Position numbers and translations under genes: made by a program. A stretch of 62,451 nt of DNA, taken from Candidatus Coatesbacteria bacterium. Its GTDB lineage: Bacteria > RBG-13-66-14 > B26-G2 > WVWN01 > G020348885. The notes below the pieces were generated by a model. That model did not search any database. It worked only from the letters and a program-made list of their open reading frames with translations, and was not told the DNA's origin. The stretch spans positions 1,532,196 through 1,594,646 of the forward strand of contig CP070755.1 in the NCBI GenBank assembly GCA_020348885.1, in the 5' to 3' direction. Shown piece by piece: positions 15,342 to 62,451 of the stretch (position 1 is its first letter; every line of letters starts with the position of its first letter).

Positions 15342-15438
15342 TAATGCTTGAAGTGGCGGCGCCCGGCGAAGACCATCGCAACGCCGTAGTCGTTAGCTAC
15401 TTTAATAGCGTCCTCGTCGCGTTTGGAACCGCCCGGCT
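15342..15438 (-). repeat. 97 bp direct-repeat copy of the purH 3' end (other copy 16946-17042)
   Basis: Manual alignment at offset 1604 shows one mismatch (15389 G vs 16993 T). The copy encodes ...[31 protein letters not shown]-stop. Confidence 0.95.
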
Positions 15439-15470: not shown

Positions 15471-16877
15471 TTATTTGTTCTTTAGCTCTTCCGCCTTTTC
15501 GTAGCATTCGGCTGCTTCCGATAACCGGTTTAACTCTTCTAGCACATCCGACTTACCGTACCACGCTTCCGCGAAATACGGATCGAGCTTCAACGCTTGT
15601 TCTTGGCACTCTAGCGCTTCTTCGTATTTACCCTGACAATACAAAGCCAATCCCTTATGATTCCAGGCTTCTTTAAAACCCGGTTCTAGTTCTAAAGCCC
15701 GGTCGGAGCACTCTATCGCTTCGTCGTACCCGCCCAGGCAGACCAAAAAACCCGCTTTATTTGACCAGGCACCAACGTATTCCGGGTCGAGTTCCAAAGT
15801 GCGATCGAAGCACTCAATAGCTTCTTCGTAATTATCCAAACCGCCCAGGGTAATCCCTTTGCCGTTCCAGGCCCGTACGTATTCCGGGTCTAACTCCAAC
15901 GCCCTATCGTAACATACTAGCGCTTCGTTATACCTACCAAGACCGTATAGAGTGAAACCTTTATTGTTCCAGGCGTCGACGTATTCCGGGTCAAGTTCCA
16001 ACGCGCGGTCGCAGCACTTTATCGCTTCGTCGTGTTTGCCCAGGTATAAAAGGGCGACCCCTTTGCCGTTCCAGGCTTCAACGAATTCCGCGTCGAGTTC
16101 CAATGCCCGGTCGCAACACTTTATCGCTTCTTCGTGTTTGCCTAGAGAGAAAAGGGCGACCCCTTTGCCGTTCCAGGCTTCAACGAATTCCGGGTCGAGT
16201 TCCAACGCCCGGTCGCAACATTCTATCGCTTCGTTGTGTCTTCCTAGATCGGATAAAGTTTCCACCTTTAAGTACCACCACCCTCTAACCTGTGCCGTGT
16301 CGAGTTCCAACGCCCTGTCCCAGCAATTTATCGCTTCGTCGTACTTAGCCAGTTCGGCTAGGGCTAACCCTTTGTTGTTCCAGGCCATAACGTATCTCGG
16401 GTCAACCTCTAACGCGCGGTTGTAGCACTCAATCGCTTCGTCGTGTTTGCCCAGGTCGTAAAGGGCGAATCCTTTGCCGTTCCAGGCTTCAACTAATTCG
16501 GCGTCAAGTTCCAACGCCCGGTCGAAACACCCTATAGCCTCATCGTACTTGCCCAAGCCCCAAAGAGCTCCACCTTTACCTCCCCAGGCGTTAACGTGTT
16601 TCGGGTCGAGTGCCAACGCGCTGTCGTAACACTCTATAGCTTCGTCATACTTGGCCAAGCCGAACAGGATTCCGGCTTTACCTGCCCAGGCATCAACGTA
16701 TTCAGGGTTTAACTCCAACGTGTAATCGAGGCATTCTATCGCTTGTACGTATTCGCCCTCTTCGTAAAACGCAACGGCCTTATCAAACCACTCTTCCGCT
16801 TCGTCTTCCGACTCGCCCGAAACGCTACCTGTAACCAAGGTCAACGCTAAGATTGTAAGTAGTGTTTTACCGTTCAT
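15471..16877 (-). CDS. Secreted TPR-repeat protein (about 12 tandem 34-aa repeats)
   Basis: Signal peptide MNGKTLLTILALTLVTGSVSG after GGAGG; repeats AWN.KG..L..LG.YDEAI.C.DRALELDP; near-identical 102 bp DNA repeats. Confidence 0.93.
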   Translation of the reverse strand: MNGKTLLTILALTLVTGSVSGESEDEAEEWFDKAVAFYEEGEYVQAIECLDYTLELNPEYVDAWAGKAGILFGLAKYDEAIECYDSALALDPKHVNAWGGKGGALWGLGKYDEAIGCFDRALELDAELVEAWNGKGFALYDLGKHDEAIECYNRALEVDPRYVMAWNNKGLALAELAKYDEAINCWDRALELDTAQVRGWWYLKVETLSDLGRHNEAIECCDRALELDPEFVEAWNGKGVALFSLGKHEEAIKCCDRALELDAEFVEAWNGKGVALLYLGKHDEAIKCCDRALELDPEYVDAWNNKGFTLYGLGRYNEALVCYDRALELDPEYVRAWNGKGITLGGLDNYEEAIECFDRTLELDPEYVGAWSNKAGFLVCLGGYDEAIECSDRALELEPGFKEAWNHKGLALYCQGKYEEALECQEQALKLDPYFAEAWYGKSDVLEELNRLSEAAECYEKAEELKNK

Positions 16878-16944
16878 TTCGCCTCCTTTGTTCAATATTC
16901 TCCGGATAAACGGTATACGCTATAAAATATCGCCGGATAATAAA

Positions 16945-18483
16945 CTAATGCTTGAAGTGGCGGCGCCCGGCGAAGACCATCGCAACGCCGTATTCGTTAG
17001 CTACTTTAATAGCGTCCTCGTCGCGTTTGGAACCGCCCGGCTGGATTATCGCGGTTATCCCCGCTTTACATGCTTCATCAGGCCCGTCGGACATCGGAAA
17101 GAAACCATCGGACGCGAGAACCGAGCCCTTAACCGCGTCTCCAGCCCGCTTCAGCGCCGCCAGCGTCGGCCAGAGCCGGTTTACCGAACCGCCGCCGATA
17201 CCGAGGGTAACGCCGTCTTTCGCCACTACTATAGCGTTCGAACGAACGTGTTTCACCACCGCGTACGCGAACAGCAGGTCGGCCCTTTCCTCTTCCGCCG
17301 GCTCCCTCTCGGTAACCACCTCCCAGCCAGCGACCAGATCGCCGGCGTCGCGCTCCTGGGCTATAAAACCGCCGAGGGCCGATTTTAACTCAACTCTGGC
17401 TGCCGGGTAAAGCCCTTTGAATATCCTGAACTTCTCGCACCATTTCTTGGCCGTCGAGAGGTATTCGACCACCCCATCTTCGTATTCCGGCGCTGCTACG
17501 CAGTGGAAGAACGTACCTTTCACCATCGCCGCTTCCGCGGCGGCCACGTCCACGGGCCGGTTAAACGCGACTATCCCGCCGTAAGCGCTCATCGGGTCGG
17601 CCTGCCACGCCCGGGTAAATGCGTCCGCGAGGGTGTCGGCGACGGCAGCGCCGCAAGGACTGCCGTGTTTCACGATTACCGCCACTGGGCGCTCGACGAA
17701 CTCGGCGGCGCAGGCCATCGCGCCGTCCAAATCGTAAATATTATTATATGACGGCTTCGGCCCGTTCAACTGCTCCAAAGGCATTTCGCGGTCGGTTCCC
17801 GGTACGTAGAACGCGCCCTTTTGGTGTGGGTTTTCGCCGTAAACCGGCTCAAGCGCCTTATTAAGCGATAGCACGTAACTATCTGGCAATACTACGTTAG
17901 GTTCAGCAAGCTTCCGGAAGTGCGCGCTTATCGCCGCGTCGTACGCGGCGGTTCGCTGGAACGCGGCCAGCGCGAGTTCCGCCCGCCACCCCGCCGTATC
18001 CTCGGCGGACGCTAAACGCTCGAGAGCGTTTTCGTATTGGCCGGGATCACAGAGTACGACGACCTCTTCGTGGTTCTTCGCGGCGGCCCGCAAAAGGGTT
18101 ACCCCGCCTATGTCTATTTCTTCTATAATCTCACTTTCACTTTTCCCGGCGGCGACAGCTTCTTCGAAAGGATAAAGATTACAGCAAACCAGGCCTATTG
18201 GTTTGATACCGTGTTCCAGAAGCTCGTCCAGGTGATCGTCGCGCGCCAAGATACCTCCCGCGATAACGGGGTGTAAGGTTTTGACCCGACCGTCGAGAAT
18301 CTCGGGGTGGCCGGTTACCTCAGCGACCTCGACGGCTTTCAAGCCCGCTTCGTGTAAAACCGTCGCGGTTCCGCCGGTGCTGACGACAGCCCAGCCGAGG
18401 TCTGCGAGCCCCCGGGCCAATTCGACGACACCTGTCTTGTCGGCGACCGAGATTAGCGCGAGTTTACGATTCGTTTTAGCCAT
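16945..18483 (-). CDS. purH: Bifunctional AICAR transformylase/IMP cyclohydrolase
   Basis: ALISVADK.G, STGGT, GRVKTLHP, IDIGG..LLRAAAKN, YGENPHQ, KH..PCG, ASDGFFP, IIQPGGSKRD, RHFKH. Confidence 0.97.
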   Translation of the reverse strand: MAKTNRKLALISVADKTGVVELARGLADLGWAVVSTGGTATVLHEAGLKAVEVAEVTGHPEILDGRVKTLHPVIAGGILARDDHLDELLEHGIKPIGLVCCNLYPFEEAVAAGKSESEIIEEIDIGGVTLLRAAAKNHEEVVVLCDPGQYENALERLASAEDTAGWRAELALAAFQRTAAYDAAISAHFRKLAEPNVVLPDSYVLSLNKALEPVYGENPHQKGAFYVPGTDREMPLEQLNGPKPSYNNIYDLDGAMACAAEFVERPVAVIVKHGSPCGAAVADTLADAFTRAWQADPMSAYGGIVAFNRPVDVAAAEAAMVKGTFFHCVAAPEYEDGVVEYLSTAKKWCEKFRIFKGLYPAARVELKSALGGFIAQERDAGDLVAGWEVVTEREPAEEERADLLFAYAVVKHVRSNAIVVAKDGVTLGIGGGSVNRLWPTLAALKRAGDAVKGSVLASDGFFPMSDGPDEACKAGITAIIQPGGSKRDEDAIKVANEYGVAMVFAGRRHFKH

Positions 18484-57310: not shown

Positions 57311-57652
57311 ATGCGTTTCTTTATAGTATTGGGGGTCGCCTTCTCGATAGCCGCCGCGTTCGCGGCCGAACCGCCCGCGCGGAAAACCGTAACCATAACC
57401 CTTACAAATACTCAGGCCGAAGCGGTTTCCAACGCGAAGGGGGAGGATATAGAAATCAACCTGACTAAAGAACAGGTCAACACTATCGCTAAAACGGCTT
57501 ACGTAAGAATCGGTATACCGGACACCGTCGGTTTTAAGACCATAACACTGAATACTGCCCATGTAAGGACAGGTAACAAAGTCGTAATCGGTTATTTCCC
57601 GCCGGACACCGCGGACGACCCAATCGAATTACAACCGGAAAAAGCCAAGTAG
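57311..57652 (+). CDS. Small secreted hypothetical protein
   Basis: GGAGG RBS; signal peptide ending AFA; internal near-repeat ITLTNTQ/INLTKEQ. Confidence 0.75.
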   Translation: MRFFIVLGVAFSIAAAFAAEPPARKTVTITLTNTQAEAVSNAKGEDIEINLTKEQVNTIAKTAYVRIGIPDTVGFKTITLNTAHVRTGNKVVIGYFPPDTADDPIELQPEKAK

Positions 57653-57794
57653 TTTAATTTCCATTACCATACGGGCTTGGTAACTAAGAATAGGGCTTAC
57701 CGGGAATAAGTGCGTCGATTATGCGGTCAGCCGCTTTTACGGCACGACAGCAACGCGCATCAACCGTTACGGCGTTCCTAACGGATTAACGGGC

Positions 57795-58790
57795 TTACCA
57801 TTCCTGTACGATATGTACTAAATCCCCCGTGATGCCGTCCACGGCGATTATGTCGTTGTTCCAATCTTCTGGATAGGTCTCGGCGACGCCCGGCGTATTC
57901 GTCATTTGATATAACGTGCCGTCCGTTTCAGCGATCCAGATTTCCGAATCGGTTACGTCCATCCAGTGGTCGTCCGTCTCGACGTACAGCACGCCTTCGA
58001 GCCCCGACCCTCCGGAATCAACATACCAGGAAGGATGAGGTAGGGCACCCTCGGCGAGCAAAAGACCCTTACCGTCGGGTTCGAAAAGCCATATTTCGTT
58101 ATCATAGGTAGCGGCGAATATCTGGCCCGTTGGCGTATACTCCGGCGGGTAAAAGCTCTTATTTTCGGCGATAATTCTTGGAGAGCCACCTTCGATCGCG
58201 GCTTCGTAGATTCGACCTTCAAAGTCGGTGAAGGCTACGTAACGGCCGTCAGGCGAAACGTCGATACTGTCCACCTCTAACGTAAACCCCTGCGGAAAAC
58301 TTTGACGATTCCCGTTTTTAAACAAATTACCTTCGGCCATATACCAGAGATTCCCGAACTCATCGTAGACTGGACAGCCACATTCGGAATAAGGCCCCAA
58401 CTTTTTTTGTAATACGCCGTTGTTGTTCAGTAGCAATACCCACACCTCGGTATTGTTGTCGGCCCAAACGGCTATAGTTTCGCCGCCGGGCGAACAGGCT
58501 CCGCCGCGAAAGCATTCATATTTTAGACCCATCTGGACACTGTCGGTTGTCACGGCGCCGTTTTTGCCGAACAAAATGAACTTGTTGCTTAAACCTTTCG
58601 TAAACGCCAGCAGGTTTTCGCCGCACGGGACCATATGGGAATAGGGTTCCGACGGGAAATTGACGGGCACTCCCGTCGTTTCTCCACCGGTTTCAGCGGC
58701 CCGGGTCTCTCCCGCCTTCTTACACGCGAAGAAAACGGCGGAAACCGCGAAAACGGCTAATACGACAACGCCGAACGTAAGGTATCTCAT
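57795..58790 (-). CDS. Lipoprotein with TolB-like beta-propeller
   Basis: Lipobox FFAC; ACSPGGETIAV, DVSPDGRYVAF, P.YTPTG, P.W, EIWIAETDGT..QMTNTPGVAETYP.W. Confidence 0.78.
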   Translation of the reverse strand: MRYLTFGVVVLAVFAVSAVFFACKKAGETRAAETGGETTGVPVNFPSEPYSHMVPCGENLLAFTKGLSNKFILFGKNGAVTTDSVQMGLKYECFRGGACSPGGETIAVWADNNTEVWVLLLNNNGVLQKKLGPYSECGCPVYDEFGNLWYMAEGNLFKNGNRQSFPQGFTLEVDSIDVSPDGRYVAFTDFEGRIYEAAIEGGSPRIIAENKSFYPPEYTPTGQIFAATYDNEIWLFEPDGKGLLLAEGALPHPSWYVDSGGSGLEGVLYVETDDHWMDVTDSEIWIAETDGTLYQMTNTPGVAETYPEDWNNDIIAVDGITGDLVHIVQEW

Positions 58791-58890
58791 CTCGTTACCT
58801 CCTAAAAAGGTTATTTAATACTATAAACGAGGTGAATTCAAGATCCGGAACCGAAACGGACCAGCCGTTCTAACGAATCGTGTTACCCCG

Positions 58891-59787
58891 TTACTGGTAG
58901 GTAGCTTTTATTTCGCCCAGGGACGCCTCTCCCACGCTCGAACCGGTGACGGTGAACGTCCATACCTCGTCTTCGCCCATTTCGTTGCCCAGGCCGTCCG
59001 CCAGCTCTCCGTCCACGGTACAGGTTATCGTAGCGCCCGCGGGTAAGTCGCTATGGGGCGAGAAGGTACAGAGTACGTCGTTGGGGTCCGTGTCGTCAAC
59101 GTCCAGGGTACCGGGTATGTCGGCTTTTGTGCCGTCGTCGGCCGTAAACTCGATAGTATCCGAGTCCACGCCGTAATCGCCGTCCTTGCAGTGGAAGATT
59201 ATGTCCGCGGCCGGGTCGACTCCCGTTTCGCCGTCGGCCGGGTCCTGCTCGTCCACGTAGGGCGGGTCGAAGTCGTCGTCTATTTTAACGCGGACCATCA
59301 GGTCACGAGCCGGGTCCCAATCCCAACCGCCGGGCTGCCAACTATAAGCAAGCCCGTGGTCCGGATTTGTGCTATCCCAACCAAAAAAAGGAGTGTCCAT
59401 ATCGTTATAATCGATACCTACCCAGAACCTATCGCCGCTGGACATCGTCACCCCGAGGTGCGTAAGGTCCACATACTCCGACCAAACCCAAGAGGCCCCT
59501 ACCGCGAACGAGTGCTCAAACGAACCTAGTACGTCTCCCGGAAGGTCCAAGTAAGGGTTATCGGCCCACACTCCTACAAGCTGGGTTCCGCTCGTATTAA
59601 CATAGTACGAAGCGCTAACGATATGGCAGTCGACCGGCGCTTCGAACCACTGAGCGAATCTGAATAATTCGCAGATATAAGAACCTTCCCTCGTATCGTC
59701 GGACTGCTGCAGGATCTGTTCTTCTCTATCCGCAAAAACGGTTACCGCGACCGCGAGAACGATAAAGATTGGAAGTACGTATTTCAT
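58891..59787 (-). CDS. Secreted protein: beta-sandwich N domain + Big_5-like domain + SLGxIKA tail
   Basis: Signal peptide; FAQWF...VGVWAD...FWVGI; PPYVDEQDPADGETGVDP...DGLGN...WTFTV; ends EASLGEIKATYQ. Confidence 0.82.
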   Translation of the reverse strand: MKYVLPIFIVLAVAVTVFADREEQILQQSDDTREGSYICELFRFAQWFEAPVDCHIVSASYYVNTSGTQLVGVWADNPYLDLPGDVLGSFEHSFAVGASWVWSEYVDLTHLGVTMSSGDRFWVGIDYNDMDTPFFGWDSTNPDHGLAYSWQPGGWDWDPARDLMVRVKIDDDFDPPYVDEQDPADGETGVDPAADIIFHCKDGDYGVDSDTIEFTADDGTKADIPGTLDVDDTDPNDVLCTFSPHSDLPAGATITCTVDGELADGLGNEMGEDEVWTFTVTGSSVGEASLGEIKATYQ

Positions 59788-59869: not shown

Positions 59870-60030
59870 ACGAAAAGCGATTCGTGCGTTGTTCTTTATA
59901 ACGGGCTAACTTACGGCAAAACCGCCCGAAACCAGGCGGTCTTAAAAATCCGATAAACGACGACGATAACGACTAACACCGGGGTTTGGTTTTGCGGTCC
60001 GCGGTTTTGATTGCGGGCTCCAAACGGAAC

Positions 60031-60606
60031 TTATCCATAGTAAATCGCAATTATGTACCCGAGAGACCTCTCCACCGGTTTATTGGACGCGTTTACGAAA
60101 TAGCTTGAAGCCGTAAAGTCGAGCCGTTCACTAACGACCCAGTTATCATACCCGCCGAAAGTGTCGTTCGCAAACCCGAAGTCGCAAAGACCTTCGGCAT
60201 AGTAACCGCCGGCCGGAGTTACCATAACGAGCAATGTCATCGGGACGTCTTTTAATATGTACGTGGTACCTTCTTCCGGGTCGCTAACGTCCGTCGTATT
60301 GAAATTGATTTCTAGCAAATCGGCTTCTAAAAACATGTTTTCGCAAGTTGTAGTGAAATCTTCCCGGTCCCACGACTCCGGTATTTCGTAATCCCCTACC
60401 GGAGTCCCTACGTCGTTCGGGTCGAAGTAAAATACGAAGTCATCACTCAGAAGCCCGTCTAGAAGGTAGAGACCGCGCCTGTTGAAGGATTCTTCGACTA
60501 ACTCGAGGGCGTACGCGGGCGTATTACCCTGAGGCGTTATAGCGTTGTTACAGGCTACGAGAGTTGTTAGGATTAGAAGAACCGTCAAAGGTTTGAGAAC
60601 GTTCAT
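60031..60606 (-). CDS. Lipoprotein, NTF2/SnoaL-like fold, with SLG-type tail
   Basis: Lipobox LVAC; ELVEESFN...LLSDDFVFYF...W.REDF....NMF; ends RSLGYIIAIYYG. Confidence 0.75.
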   Translation of the reverse strand: MNVLKPLTVLLILTTLVACNNAITPQGNTPAYALELVEESFNRRGLYLLDGLLSDDFVFYFDPNDVGTPVGDYEIPESWDREDFTTTCENMFLEADLLEINFNTTDVSDPEEGTTYILKDVPMTLLVMVTPAGGYYAEGLCDFGFANDTFGGYDNWVVSERLDFTASSYFVNASNKPVERSLGYIIAIYYG

Positions 60607-60642
60607 AAAACCAACCCCTTCGTTAACGTGGCTAGAAAACGT

Positions 60643-61224
60643 TTAATAAAAACTCGCTAAAATATTACCTAAAGAAGTTGGTGTCCCGGTACTCGATAAC
60701 CCCGCAGAACCCCTCGGCGAAGTATCATCGTACCACTTGCTCACCTTCCAATCGTCGTAACCGGCCGAAGTATCGTTGGTAAACTCGAAGTCGCAAACCC
60801 CATTGGCCGTGAAACCGTTATTTGCGTCTATCATAACTAAGAACCGTATATGGACGTTGTATACTTCGAAAGTCGTAGCCCCTTCCTCCGGGTTTTCGAT
60901 GCCGGTCGTAACGATATCAAAGTTAATCAAATACGCCAGGTCAAACATATTACCGCAAGCCCTCATAAAATAGTCTCGATTCCAGAAGGTAGGTATCATA
61001 TAATCCCCTACGAAAGTACCTATATCGTTCAGGTCGAAGTAAAAGACGAAGTCGGTACTCAGAACACCGTCGAGTACCGAAATAGCTCCCCTGTTGGAAG
61101 ATTCCTCCAGAAGTTCTAGCACGTCTGCGGGGGTGTTGTCACCCTGGGACCGTATTGTGTCTTCGTCGCAGGCTATGAGAGTTGCTATGATGAAGATAAC
61201 GGTTAAAAGAGTTATGGGTCTCAT
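60643..61224 (-). CDS. Lipoprotein, NTF2/SnoaL-like fold, paralogue of 60031-60606, with SLG-type tail
   Basis: Lipobox LIAC; ELLEESSN...VLSTDFVFYF...WNRDYF...GNMF; ends TSLGNILASFY. Confidence 0.75.
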   Translation of the reverse strand: MRPITLLTVIFIIATLIACDEDTIRSQGDNTPADVLELLEESSNRGAISVLDGVLSTDFVFYFDLNDIGTFVGDYMIPTFWNRDYFMRACGNMFDLAYLINFDIVTTGIENPEEGATTFEVYNVHIRFLVMIDANNGFTANGVCDFEFTNDTSAGYDDWKVSKWYDDTSPRGSAGLSSTGTPTSLGNILASFY

Positions 61225-61340
61225 GTCCTAATCTCCTCCTCCGTTAAAACGTACAGCTCATAGACCAGCGCGTCGATCTTGCGGTTCGTGGTTTTGACGG
61301 CGCGCTCGAGGCGGCCGCGGTCCGCGTCACTCCCGGCGGC
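61221..61340 (-). pseudogene. C-terminal remnant of a type IIG (Eco57I/TaqI-like) restriction-modification gene
   Basis: Hand translation: AAGSDADRGRLERAVKTTNRKIDALVYELYVLTEEEIRT-stop, matching the family tail IDxLVYxLYxLTxEEI. Confidence 0.75.
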
Positions 61341-61343
61341 GTA

Positions 61344-61616
61344 TTATAAAACCTTAAAGAACACCAGAACGCCGACCACCACGAACGCGACGCCGGCGAC
61401 CCGGCTGATTAACCCCTGAGGGATATATTCGGACGCGAGACCGCCAAGCAGAACCGCCGCCAACGTCAACAAACCCAGGGCGAGGAACGAACCCGCGAAC
61501 ACGGGAACGGGCTTGCCGGTCTTTGCCGCGAGGGTCAGGGCCATTATCTGCGTTTTGTCGCCCAATTCGGCCAACAAAATTAAACCGAACGACGAAAACA
61601 TTACTTTAAAGTCCAT
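61344..61616 (-). CDS. Half-size TMEM165/GDT1 (UPF0016) Ca2+/Mn2+ transporter
   Basis: LLAELGDKTQIMAL motif, three TM segments, 90 aa. Start set at ATG 61616; the ORF-track N-extension is the RM remnant. Confidence 0.9.
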   Translation of the reverse strand: MDFKVMFSSFGLILLAELGDKTQIMALTLAAKTGKPVPVFAGSFLALGLLTLAAVLLGGLASEYIPQGLISRVAGVAFVVVGVLVFFKVL

Positions 61617-61670
61617 CGGCGGTCCTTTCCGGACCGGTCCCGAAGACCGGCCACTATCTCCCCCCATGCC

Positions 61671-61718
61671 AATCTCCTCGTCCGTCAATCCGTACAGCTT
61701 ATAGACCAGCGCGTCAAT
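61671..61718 (-). pseudogene. Second type IIG RM C-terminal remnant (48 bp repeat with 61230-61277)
   Basis: IDALVYKLYGLTDEEI; 42/48 nt identical to the other copy by manual alignment. Confidence 0.75.
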
Positions 61719-62451
61719 TTGAATCCGGTATCCCGTACTGCGGGTCAAGTTCATGAGCTTTTTTATAACACTCGAGAGCTTCGTCGTATTTCCCCAGACC
61801 GCTAAGAGCCCGACCTTTGTAGTTCCACGCGTACGCGTCGTCTGCGTTAAGCTCCAACGCCTTATCTAAACACTCTATCGCTTCGTCGCATCTGCCCAGA
61901 CCAACAAGGGCGCTGCCTTTGCCGCCCCACGCATACGAGAATTCCGGGTCAAGCTCCAATGCCTTATCTAAACACCCTATCGCTTCATCGTATTCGCCTA
62001 GATAAACAAGGGCAGTGCCTTTGCCGTTCCACGCGTACGCGTCTTCCGGGTTAAGCTCCAACGTTTTATCATAAGACTCTATAGCTTCGTCACATTTGCC
62101 CAGGCCGATAAGGGCGCTGCCTTTGCCGCCCCACGCGCACCAGAATTCCGGGTCAAACTCCAATGCTTTATCGAAACACTCTACCGCCTCATCATATTCG
62201 CCTAGCTCGACAAGGGCGGCGCCTTTGCCGTTCCACGCGTACGCGTCTCCCGGGTTAAGCTCAAGCGCTTTGTCGTAACACTCGATCGCTTCATCACATT
62301 TGCCCAGGCCGACAAGGGCGCTGCCTTTGCCGCCCCACGCGTACCAGAATTCCGGGTCAAACTCCAAGGCTTTATCTAAACACTTTACCGCTTCATTATA
62401 TTCGCCCAGATAGACAAGGGCGGCGCCTTTGCCGTTCCACGCGTACGCGTC
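61714..62451 (-). CDS. TPR-repeat protein, C-terminal part (runs off window end)
   Basis: Frame open to 62451. Alternating repeats FWYAWGGKGSALVGLGKCDEAI and AYAWNGKG.AL..LGEYDEA with 204 bp DNA periodicity (GCGTACGCGTC at 61829, 62033, 62237, 62441). Confidence 0.92.
   Translation of the reverse strand, partial: DAYAWNGKGAALVYLGEYNEAVKCLDKALEFDPEFWYAWGGKGSALVGLGKCDEAIECYDKALELNPGDAYAWNGKGAALVELGEYDEAVECFDKALEFDPEFWCAWGGKGSALIGLGKCDEAIESYDKTLELNPEDAYAWNGKGTALVYLGEYDEAIGCLDKALELDPEFSYAWGGKGSALVGLGRCDEAIECLDKALELNADDAYAWNYKGRALSGLGKYDEALECYKKAHELDPQYGIPDSN

Follow-up and report, generated by a model that had tools for sequence, protein, structure and literature searches.

A probable decayed cassette array punctuated by relics of a type IIG restriction-modification gene in a Candidatus Coatesbacteria genome

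Introduction

Why should one short piece of coding sequence recur between unrelated genes along a single strand of a bacterial genome? The question is raised by a 62,451-nt stretch from a Candidatus Coatesbacteria bacterium (hereafter the window; positions 1,532,196 to 1,594,646 of contig CP070755.1, assembly GCA_020348885.1), which near its end carries repeated copies of what an original prediction, made from the letters alone, took to be the 3′ end, or tail, of a type IIG restriction-modification (RM) gene. Sequence comparison confirms that the repeats are relics of the 3′ end of such a gene. We consider it probable that this segment forms the proximal end of a cassette array, now decayed, in which RM tails punctuate the sequence; the array would have grown by integrase-free recombination at the tail and then outlasted the RM gene as that gene was turned over and lost. 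Below, G000 denotes the source assembly and G001 a metagenome-assembled genome (MAG) of an uncultured bacterium of the same genus; L-numbers denote individual loci or records.

Results

Layout of the repeats in the window

The array lies on the minus strand and, read in that direction, comprises the following features.

61714-62451, minus strand: 3′ part of a TPR-repeat gene (TPR_1, E 9.5e-71), entering a 100-N scaffold gap at the window end
61657-61721, minus strand: tail 1, distal part of the type IIG RM 3′ end (QIDALVYKLYGLTDEEIGMGG)
61344-61616, minus strand: cassette A, a 90-aa GDT1/UPF0016 membrane protein with an ELGDKTQ motif (PF01169, 84.1 bits, cut-off 27)
61221-61343, minus strand: tail 2, from the final ~120 nt of the RM gene (SDADRGRLERAVKTTNRKIDALVYELYVLTEEEIRT*), beginning right after the GDT1 stop
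61242-61233, minus strand: GGAGGAGGAG, the T-E-E-E codons of tail 2, 8 nt before the lipoprotein A ATG; a likely Shine-Dalgarno motif, judged from sequence
60031-61224, minus strand: cassette B, two tandem paralogous lipoproteins, A and B (193 and 191 aa, no Pfam family), with an orthologous trio in G001
61224-60643, minus strand: the lipoprotein A gene, 193 aa
59991-60035, minus strand: tail 3, proximal part only (DKFRLEPAIKTADRK), running from the lipoprotein B stop to the point where cassette C truncates it
57795-59787, minus strand: cassette C, encoding a 298-aa Big_5 surface protein and a beta-propeller-like lipoprotein of 331 aa
57705-57746, minus strand: tail 4, partial (RAVKAADRIIDALI), resuming the tail interrupted by cassette C
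57311-57652, plus strand: a convergent 113-aa gene, the distal limit of the array, with 68% aa identity to its G001 orthologue

The window holds four tail relics and three cassettes in all. The original prediction covered the part from the TPR gene to the first lipoprotein gene, and its description of that part was borne out by the sequence: the gene order, a 42/48 direct repeat, a TPR stop codon inside the first tail, and an ATGA overlap between the second tail and the lipoprotein gene. Two further partial tails, at 59991-60035 and 57705-57746, carry the array about 3.5 kb further.

The 48-nt direct repeat (61230-61277 and 61671-61718) reads IDALVYELYVLTEEEIRT* and IDALVYKLYGLTDEEI on the minus strand; its 24-nt core pattern gives 2 matches against 0.00 expected from 100 shuffles, and the longest exact run common to tails 1 and 2 is 15 nt. 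Tail 1 is cut at its 5′ end by the TPR gene, whose TGA (61716-61714) falls within it, and has lost its own stop codon; it reaches about 61657 (IGMGG, equivalent to IAVVEG), beyond the boundary first drawn. The TGA of tail 2 (61223-61221) overlaps the ATG of lipoprotein A (61224-61222). The lipoprotein genes have a GC content of 46-48%, against 62% for tail 2 and 56.5% for the genome, and a promoter-like site stands at 59869-59841 in cassette C.

Members of the GDT1/UPF0016 family normally have two domains or are encoded by paired genes. The cassette A product has both the PF01169 match and the E-x-G-D-K-T motif, with one domain only and no partner gene. Tail 1 shares its frame with the GDT1 gene, which creates a spurious 136-aa open reading frame (ORF; 61344-61754), and the stop of GDT1 falls in the frame of tail 2. 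Both shared frames are probably coincidental; gene callers will misplace the GDT1 start.

Source of the repeats

An intact gene of the expected kind exists in G001. Tail 2 (61230-61341) matches its 3′ end with 87% identity over 112 nt (E 7e-33), and its 944-aa product combines an HSDR_N-type nuclease with Eco57I (1.8e-37) and TaqI_C (6e-17) domains and ends in ...KRLAAAKSDADRTRLERAVKATDRKIDALVYELYGLTEEEIAVVEG*. The type IIG Eco57I/TaqI_C class is marked by a single polypeptide with a nuclease, a PF07669 N6-adenine methyltransferase and a PF12950 recognition domain. Tails 1 and 2 of the window share the conserved type IIG C-terminus, ...IDxLVYxLYGLTxEEIxxVEG. When the whole of G000 was searched by tblastn with a peptide based on the G001 tail (last 35 residues unchanged, upstream part composite), tail 2 was recovered at E 3.9e-14 and tail 1 at E 3.5e-4. 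The tail peptide also matched the C-termini of plasmid genes whose annotated products are Eco57I-domain, TaqI_C-domain or N-6 methylase proteins; these archaeal and bacterial plasmid matches are informative only on the identity of the tail as an RM C-terminus, not as arrays. The assignment of the repeated peptide to Eco57I/TaqI-like type IIG enzymes, made in the original prediction, is upheld by the G001 gene and the annotated plasmid genes alike.

Remnants in the source genome

G000 appears to retain nothing of the gene besides its tails, with no PF07669 (Eco57I-family) match in the assembly, which is 90% complete, or in the window. Beyond position 62,451, where the original prediction had suggested looking for them, neither an intact RM gene nor an integrase is present: the assembly consists of 198 contigs joined by 100-N spacers, the window ends in such a gap within the TPR gene, and past it lie the TPR N-terminus and then UbiA-type and housekeeping genes.

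There are only three strong copies of the tail motif in G000, none of them joined to an RM gene. The third (L005 8560-8670) sits directly upstream of a paralogous 193-aa lipoprotein gene and again forms an ATGA overlap. The 193-aa lipoprotein belongs to an orphan family with no Pfam match and about 11 paralogues in G000, six of them in tandem without tails; only two copies in G000 keep an RM-tail leader. Copies of the family lie as follows.

G000 1795479-1798976: lipoprotein family copies
L005 8667-9248 and 11861-12442: lipoprotein family copies
Window 60031-61224: lipoprotein family copies (cassette B)

The original prediction had cast the tails as translation-coupling adaptors. Coupling is not supported for tail 2: it contains no in-frame ATG, GTG or TTG and so yields no translation product to which the lipoprotein could be coupled. 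The nearest upstream stop, that of GDT1, lies at a distance of 120 nt. The adaptor role survives in a narrower form: tail 2 supplies the likely Shine-Dalgarno motif, and the tail/ATG junction is retained in three diverged lipoprotein copies, with the motif kept in the paralogous L005 copy (GAGGAGGAG) and weakened in G001 (GGAAGGGGAG). A narrow exaptation of the tail as a lipoprotein ribosome-binding site is plausible.

Comparison with a same-genus genome

In G001 the corresponding order is ftsX-terminator, a decayed tail, three lipoprotein genes, a fairly complete tail and a convergent 112-aa gene. Both tail-lipoprotein junctions are common to the two assemblies, and in 3 of 3 copies the lipoprotein ATG takes the place of the last five tail codons. 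Across three copies, nucleotide identity is 68-75% for the relic preceding the lipoprotein genes and 68-81% for those genes themselves. Because the relic diverges about as fast as the genes, the tail-lipoprotein unit is old and co-inherited. Tail 2 is fresher than its G001 orthologue: it has 87% identity to the G001 tail that still belongs to a live gene, and the two orthologous relics have 74% identity to each other. We conjecture that the 5′ part of tail 2 was renewed on addition of the GDT1 cassette.

At the other end of the array, the comparison captures a site with and without its cassette. The G001 orthologue of tail 3 is more complete and stands directly after lipoprotein 3, and the orthologue of the 113-aa gene comes directly after that tail. 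The Big_5 and 331-aa pair is missing at this position in G001; in G000 it is placed inside the tail. A stretch of about 20 nt, AAAnCnGCnGACCGCA, is found at both cassette C junctions in G000 and once in G001. One tail in G001 corresponds to split tails in G000, but the repeated length is only about 20 nt.

Synteny at ftsX was considered as a left-side empty-site comparator and rejected: ftsX lies elsewhere in G000, with a different gene after it. For the L005 lipoprotein locus, the G001 assembly is too fragmented to provide an orthologue.

Arrays across the phylum

We searched 25 genomes of the phylum with a 46-aa tail and found tails in 17 (71 matches). Twenty-one of the matches lie in frames of 558-1217 aa, which are RM genes, and the other 50 in frames of at most 237 aa (orphans). 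Orphan tails lie on the downstream side of an RM gene and share its orientation, with one or two ORFs between. They occupy open frames of 27-100 aa with a stop of their own, the cargo being separate ORFs, and many copies carry stops, indels or insertions of repetitive extragenic palindrome (REP) type. The G001 RM locus runs RM gene, HEPN gene, orphan tail, next ORF; the largest array, in G012 (L049), packs ten tails into 6.6 kb, and further arrays occur in G003, G007, G009 and G011. The genes neighbouring the arrays are housekeeping genes. The original prediction had proposed an insertion hotspot at the RM tail, with serial addition of cargo, RM turnover or both, and relatives in which an intact type IIG gene is followed by cargo-tail units support that proposal.

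Cargo beside live RM genes is defence-like or unassigned; it includes HEPN_Cthe2314, Schlafen/AlbA_2 with a restriction-endonuclease-like domain, PIN_12, DUF3800, DUF4268 and a Pycsar-cyclase-like protein, along with many ORFs that have no match. The first cassette behind the G009 RM gene (L052 2967-3896; Pfam DUF4268) strongly matches PDC-S11, a candidate defence family of PADLOC (E 1e-137). Among 39 ORFs directly after a tail, only three families recur.

Two loci are RM decay intermediates. In L060 (1297-1551) an 84-aa ORF joins the RM N-terminus straight to the tail, and in L064 (3477-4772) a 179-aa RM N-terminal fragment is followed by a lipoprotein gene and then a tail.

One site of a sister genus, flanked by genes for an S41 peptidase and a PpiC rotamase (L050, L056, L057, L067-L073), is present in every state from empty to full. 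It is empty (~310 nt) in G006 and G011, where the entire RM unit is absent; it holds tail fragments only in G005, a tail, a 185-aa gene and a tail without an RM gene in G010, an RM gene, a 300-aa gene and a tail in G007, and an RM gene followed by several tails and cassettes in G009. In G014 an unrelated 246-aa gene takes its place. The variable cargo and empty sites that an insertion hotspot should leave among relatives are thus both seen here.

REP-like GC-rich palindromes, translating as GATRCAPT or LRPY..., are scattered through G011 and G012 and sit inside several orphan tails. IS200-like Y1 (RAYT-type) transposase genes are found in two cassettes (L051 4296-4844 and L059 2628-3269). The interrupted tail loci are these.

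L053 4440-4709 and 5376-5504 (G011/G012): REP-interrupted tails
L051 (G011/G012): REP-interrupted tail locus

Anatomy and divergence of the tails

Homology between orphans and the resident RM gene begins at most 185 to 213 nt before the stop (seven copies, four genomes), which sets the length limit of an orphan at about 68 residues after the TaqI_C domain. Other 5′ starts lie at -147, -134, about -105, -80 and -55, for an overall range of -52 to -213, and nearly all orphans extend to the RM stop. The 5′ ends near -205 differ by 5-20 nt between copies, and such fuzziness speaks against a precise recombinase. After the tail stop, the next ORF often begins within 10-20 nt.

Folding the DNA of five copies or strands gave no hairpin or attC-like structure (z -0.81 to +1.78). 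Across more than 15 arrays, Pfam scans of the window cargo and of the relatives' cargo and neighbours revealed no integrase and, apart from the two IS200-like Y1 cargo genes, no transposase.

Tail copies are 61-94% identical to one another, and their differences are mainly synonymous. Codon-aligned ratios of nonsynonymous to synonymous divergence (dN/dS) are 0.25 between RM-attached tails of different loci, 0.31 between orphan and resident tails of the same locus (proportion of synonymous differences, pS, 0.40), 0.28 between orphans and 0.23 for 5′-truncated orphans, values in which dN is biased downward, as the tails were found by protein similarity, which favours conserved copies. In some arrays orphans are nearest their own RM tail (94% in G011, 88% in G001); in others they are nearer foreign RM tails, and one G009 orphan is 91% identical to the G012 RM tail. 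A G003 orphan shows 77% identity to the G001 type versus 61% to its own RM tail. Most of the divergence appears to have arisen while the sequences were still coding. The orphans would be fossils of earlier or foreign RM alleles and more than mere decayed copies of the resident one.

Discussion

A probable history

The account that we find probable for this segment begins with a live RM gene heading a co-oriented array of the form RM-(1-2 genes-tail)n. Cassettes would enter at or just after the RM stop, duplicating up to about 205 nt of the tail and leaving the RM gene intact, through either of two routes: insertion with long target duplication, and Campbell-type homologous integration of a tail-bearing circle. 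The tail would be the natural substrate, as RM alleles differ in their recognition domains and share no other block conserved at the nucleotide level. When the RM allele was later replaced, older tails would stay behind as fossils, which would account for orphan-resident differences falling mainly at synonymous sites. Final loss of the RM body would yield the G000 state, four relics between three cassettes, while the tail-lipoprotein junction would have been inherited through speciation and paralogous duplication, its TEEE codons now serving as the lipoprotein ribosome-binding site.

Several points weigh against this account. The clustering of 5′ ends near -205 and the proximity of the next ORF are not predicted in detail by either recombination model, and may need selection or a sequence-specific step. 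The window cargo, envelope proteins, is unlike the defence-type cargo beside live RM genes, and with non-defence cargo the window array could have a partly different history. For the GDT1 cassette no empty-site comparator was found. The dN/dS values carry the ascertainment bias described above, and all surveyed genomes are MAGs, with G000 only 90% complete.

Other explanations

The strongest alternative, which we regard as unlikely, is a graveyard of RM operons, in which every cargo gene originally stood downstream of a type IIG gene of its own, as its partner, and the RM bodies were deleted serially, with no insertion process. It would explain why orphans are often nearer the RM tails of other genomes than the resident one, why they diverged under coding constraint and why the next ORFs begin in operon-like fashion very near the tail stop, and L060 and L064 look like its intermediates. 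Random deletion, however, should give fragments of all sizes, and none of about 50 orphans extends beyond about 213 nt, with cargo stops abutting the boundary. Ten tails in 6.6 kb would require ten 3-kb genes to have been trimmed alike, and cassette C splits a tail, with a short repeat at both junctions.

It is quite improbable that the tail is an attachment site for a trans-acting tyrosine, serine or HUH recombinase, comparable to integron attC/attI or to elements at tRNA and tmRNA 3′ ends. The cassette layout, the co-orientation, the reuse of one target and the Y1 transposases in two cassettes would all suit such a system, but the arrays lack integrases, the 5′ boundaries are variable and fuzzy, tails of 61-94% identity have no exact common core, and no secondary-structure signal is detected. 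The Y1 genes, moreover, accompany REP-like palindromes that are dispersed in those genomes and even interrupt tails.

We think it very improbable that the tails are kept for a function of their own, as RM-interacting peptides or as 5′ leaders and ribosome-binding modules, with the repetition reflecting selection and not a scar. A dN/dS of about 0.3 even in 5′-truncated copies, the conservation of the TEEE-codon Shine-Dalgarno motif and ATGA junction in three lipoprotein copies, and the in-frame GTG and ATG of long orphans speak for it; against it stand the stops, indels and REP insertions in many copies, the missing start codon of tail 2, and the near-equal divergence of the lipoprotein-upstream relics and coding sequences (68-75% versus 68-81%). 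In most arrays GAGGAG is 30-50 nt from the next start, too distant for a Shine-Dalgarno role, and a function would leave the origin of the copies unexplained.

Chance similarity or misassembly at a repeat can be dismissed: although all sequences are MAG-derived and G000 is a set of 198 contigs with 100-N spacers, shuffles gave zero matches, the match to a real RM gene reaches E 7e-33, the junctions are reproduced in the independent G001 assembly, the 15-nt longest exact run between tails 1 and 2 is below assembler k-mer sizes, and arrays recur across 17 genomes.

Relation to known systems

Of the published descriptions, the one that comes nearest is that of insertion with long target duplication, reportedly given by Nobusato et al. 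in 2000, and rhs/cdiA orphan-module arrays offer the closest analogy. Furuta, Abe and Kobayashi (2010, PMC2853133) describe inserts without mobility genes between direct repeats of 30-400 bp, with a single copy of the repeat where the insert is absent, frequently located at the 3′ ends of genes and associated with RM loci. The present arrays are similar in having repeats above 30 bp (48 nt around GDT1, 100-200 nt around the relatives' cassettes) and, except for the two Y1 cargo genes, no transposase or integrase in or beside the inserts. They differ in that the published cases insert the RM system, whereas here the RM tail is the reused target and other genes are the inserts; the events are also serial, with as many as 10 tails, and different RM alleles are the source of the copies, which are diverged fossils.

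A separate case in the window lies at the purH 3′ end, where a 96/97 direct repeat (15342-15438 and 16946-17042) brackets a secreted TPR gene (15471-16895, minus strand). The orphan purH 3′ copy precedes purD, no mobility gene is present and neither end of the insert recurs in the genome. The case is a clean, recent, RM-independent insertion with long target duplication, and its layout matches that of PMC2853133. A common mobile element behind both TPR insertions, at purH and at tail 1, was considered and rejected: TPR-repeat similarity is all that the two have in common, and the insert ends occur nowhere else in the genome.

As for the analogy, the arrays resemble those of toxin genes in that a full-length gene is followed by co-oriented units that each carry a gene stub, with no integrase. 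In rhs, cdiA and polymorphic-toxin genes, displaced C-terminal modules form co-oriented arrays without an integrase, and a conserved stub provides the homology handle. There the stub precedes a variable C-terminus and an immunity gene and recombination changes the main protein, whereas here the stub is the extreme 3′ end, the cargo consists of independent ORFs and the RM protein would stay unaltered; no stub fused in frame to a variable C-terminal domain with an immunity gene was found.

With integrons and clusters of attC sites lacking integrases (CALINs) the arrays share promoterless, co-oriented and diverse one-gene cassettes, a recurring element of about 60-200 nt and an adjacent platform gene. 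They differ in that the repeat is coding sequence of the platform gene, with no attC hairpin and no fixed boundaries. IntI was not found among the ORFs beside the arrays examined; no genome-wide search for it was made. Tycheposons and other integrative elements accrete at the 3′ ends of tRNA, tmRNA or protein genes by means of a tyrosine integrase and an exact att core. Here too, partial gene-end copies delimit cargo blocks, and some blocks of those elements lack an integrase, but neither a tyrosine integrase nor an exact att core with fixed boundaries is seen.

In the process called domain movement, swapping of target recognition domains (TRDs) in type I and type IIG genes recombines at conserved flanking blocks. 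TRD swapping accounts for RM allele turnover and for conservation of the tail at the DNA level, but it exchanges domains within the gene, adds no genes and leaves no tail copies. Allelic TRD diversity in RM genes is documented (PMC2853133). In the literature we found no description of tail-punctuated arrays behind type IIG genes, and only Furuta et al. 2010 (PMC2853133) proved relevant.

Implications

The window adds an RM-less end state, non-defence cargo, reuse of a tail as a ribosome-binding site, dN/dS evidence and an empty-to-full site series. We tentatively suggest, as a possibility that we hold at somewhat less than even, that the type IIG tail may be the landing pad of an integrase-free gene-capture platform, integron-like but run by the cell's own recombination, in which cassettes with a tail copy could be gained, lost and exchanged among any genomes possessing such an enzyme, and which would not be limited to classic defence genes.

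If tail recombination suffices, defence islands and variable regions could be built without dedicated mobile-element machinery, and the poorly understood process of insertion with long target duplication would gain a recurrent and testable natural substrate. Tail relics, including the small RM-like pseudo-ORFs, would become markers of cassette junctions and of past, vanished RM systems, and the genes that tails bracket would be candidates for new defence functions. On the platform reading, the envelope cargo of the window, namely lipoproteins, a Big_5 surface protein and a GDT1 transporter, would consist of captured genes that have outlived the RM gene, and might alter the surface seen by phages.

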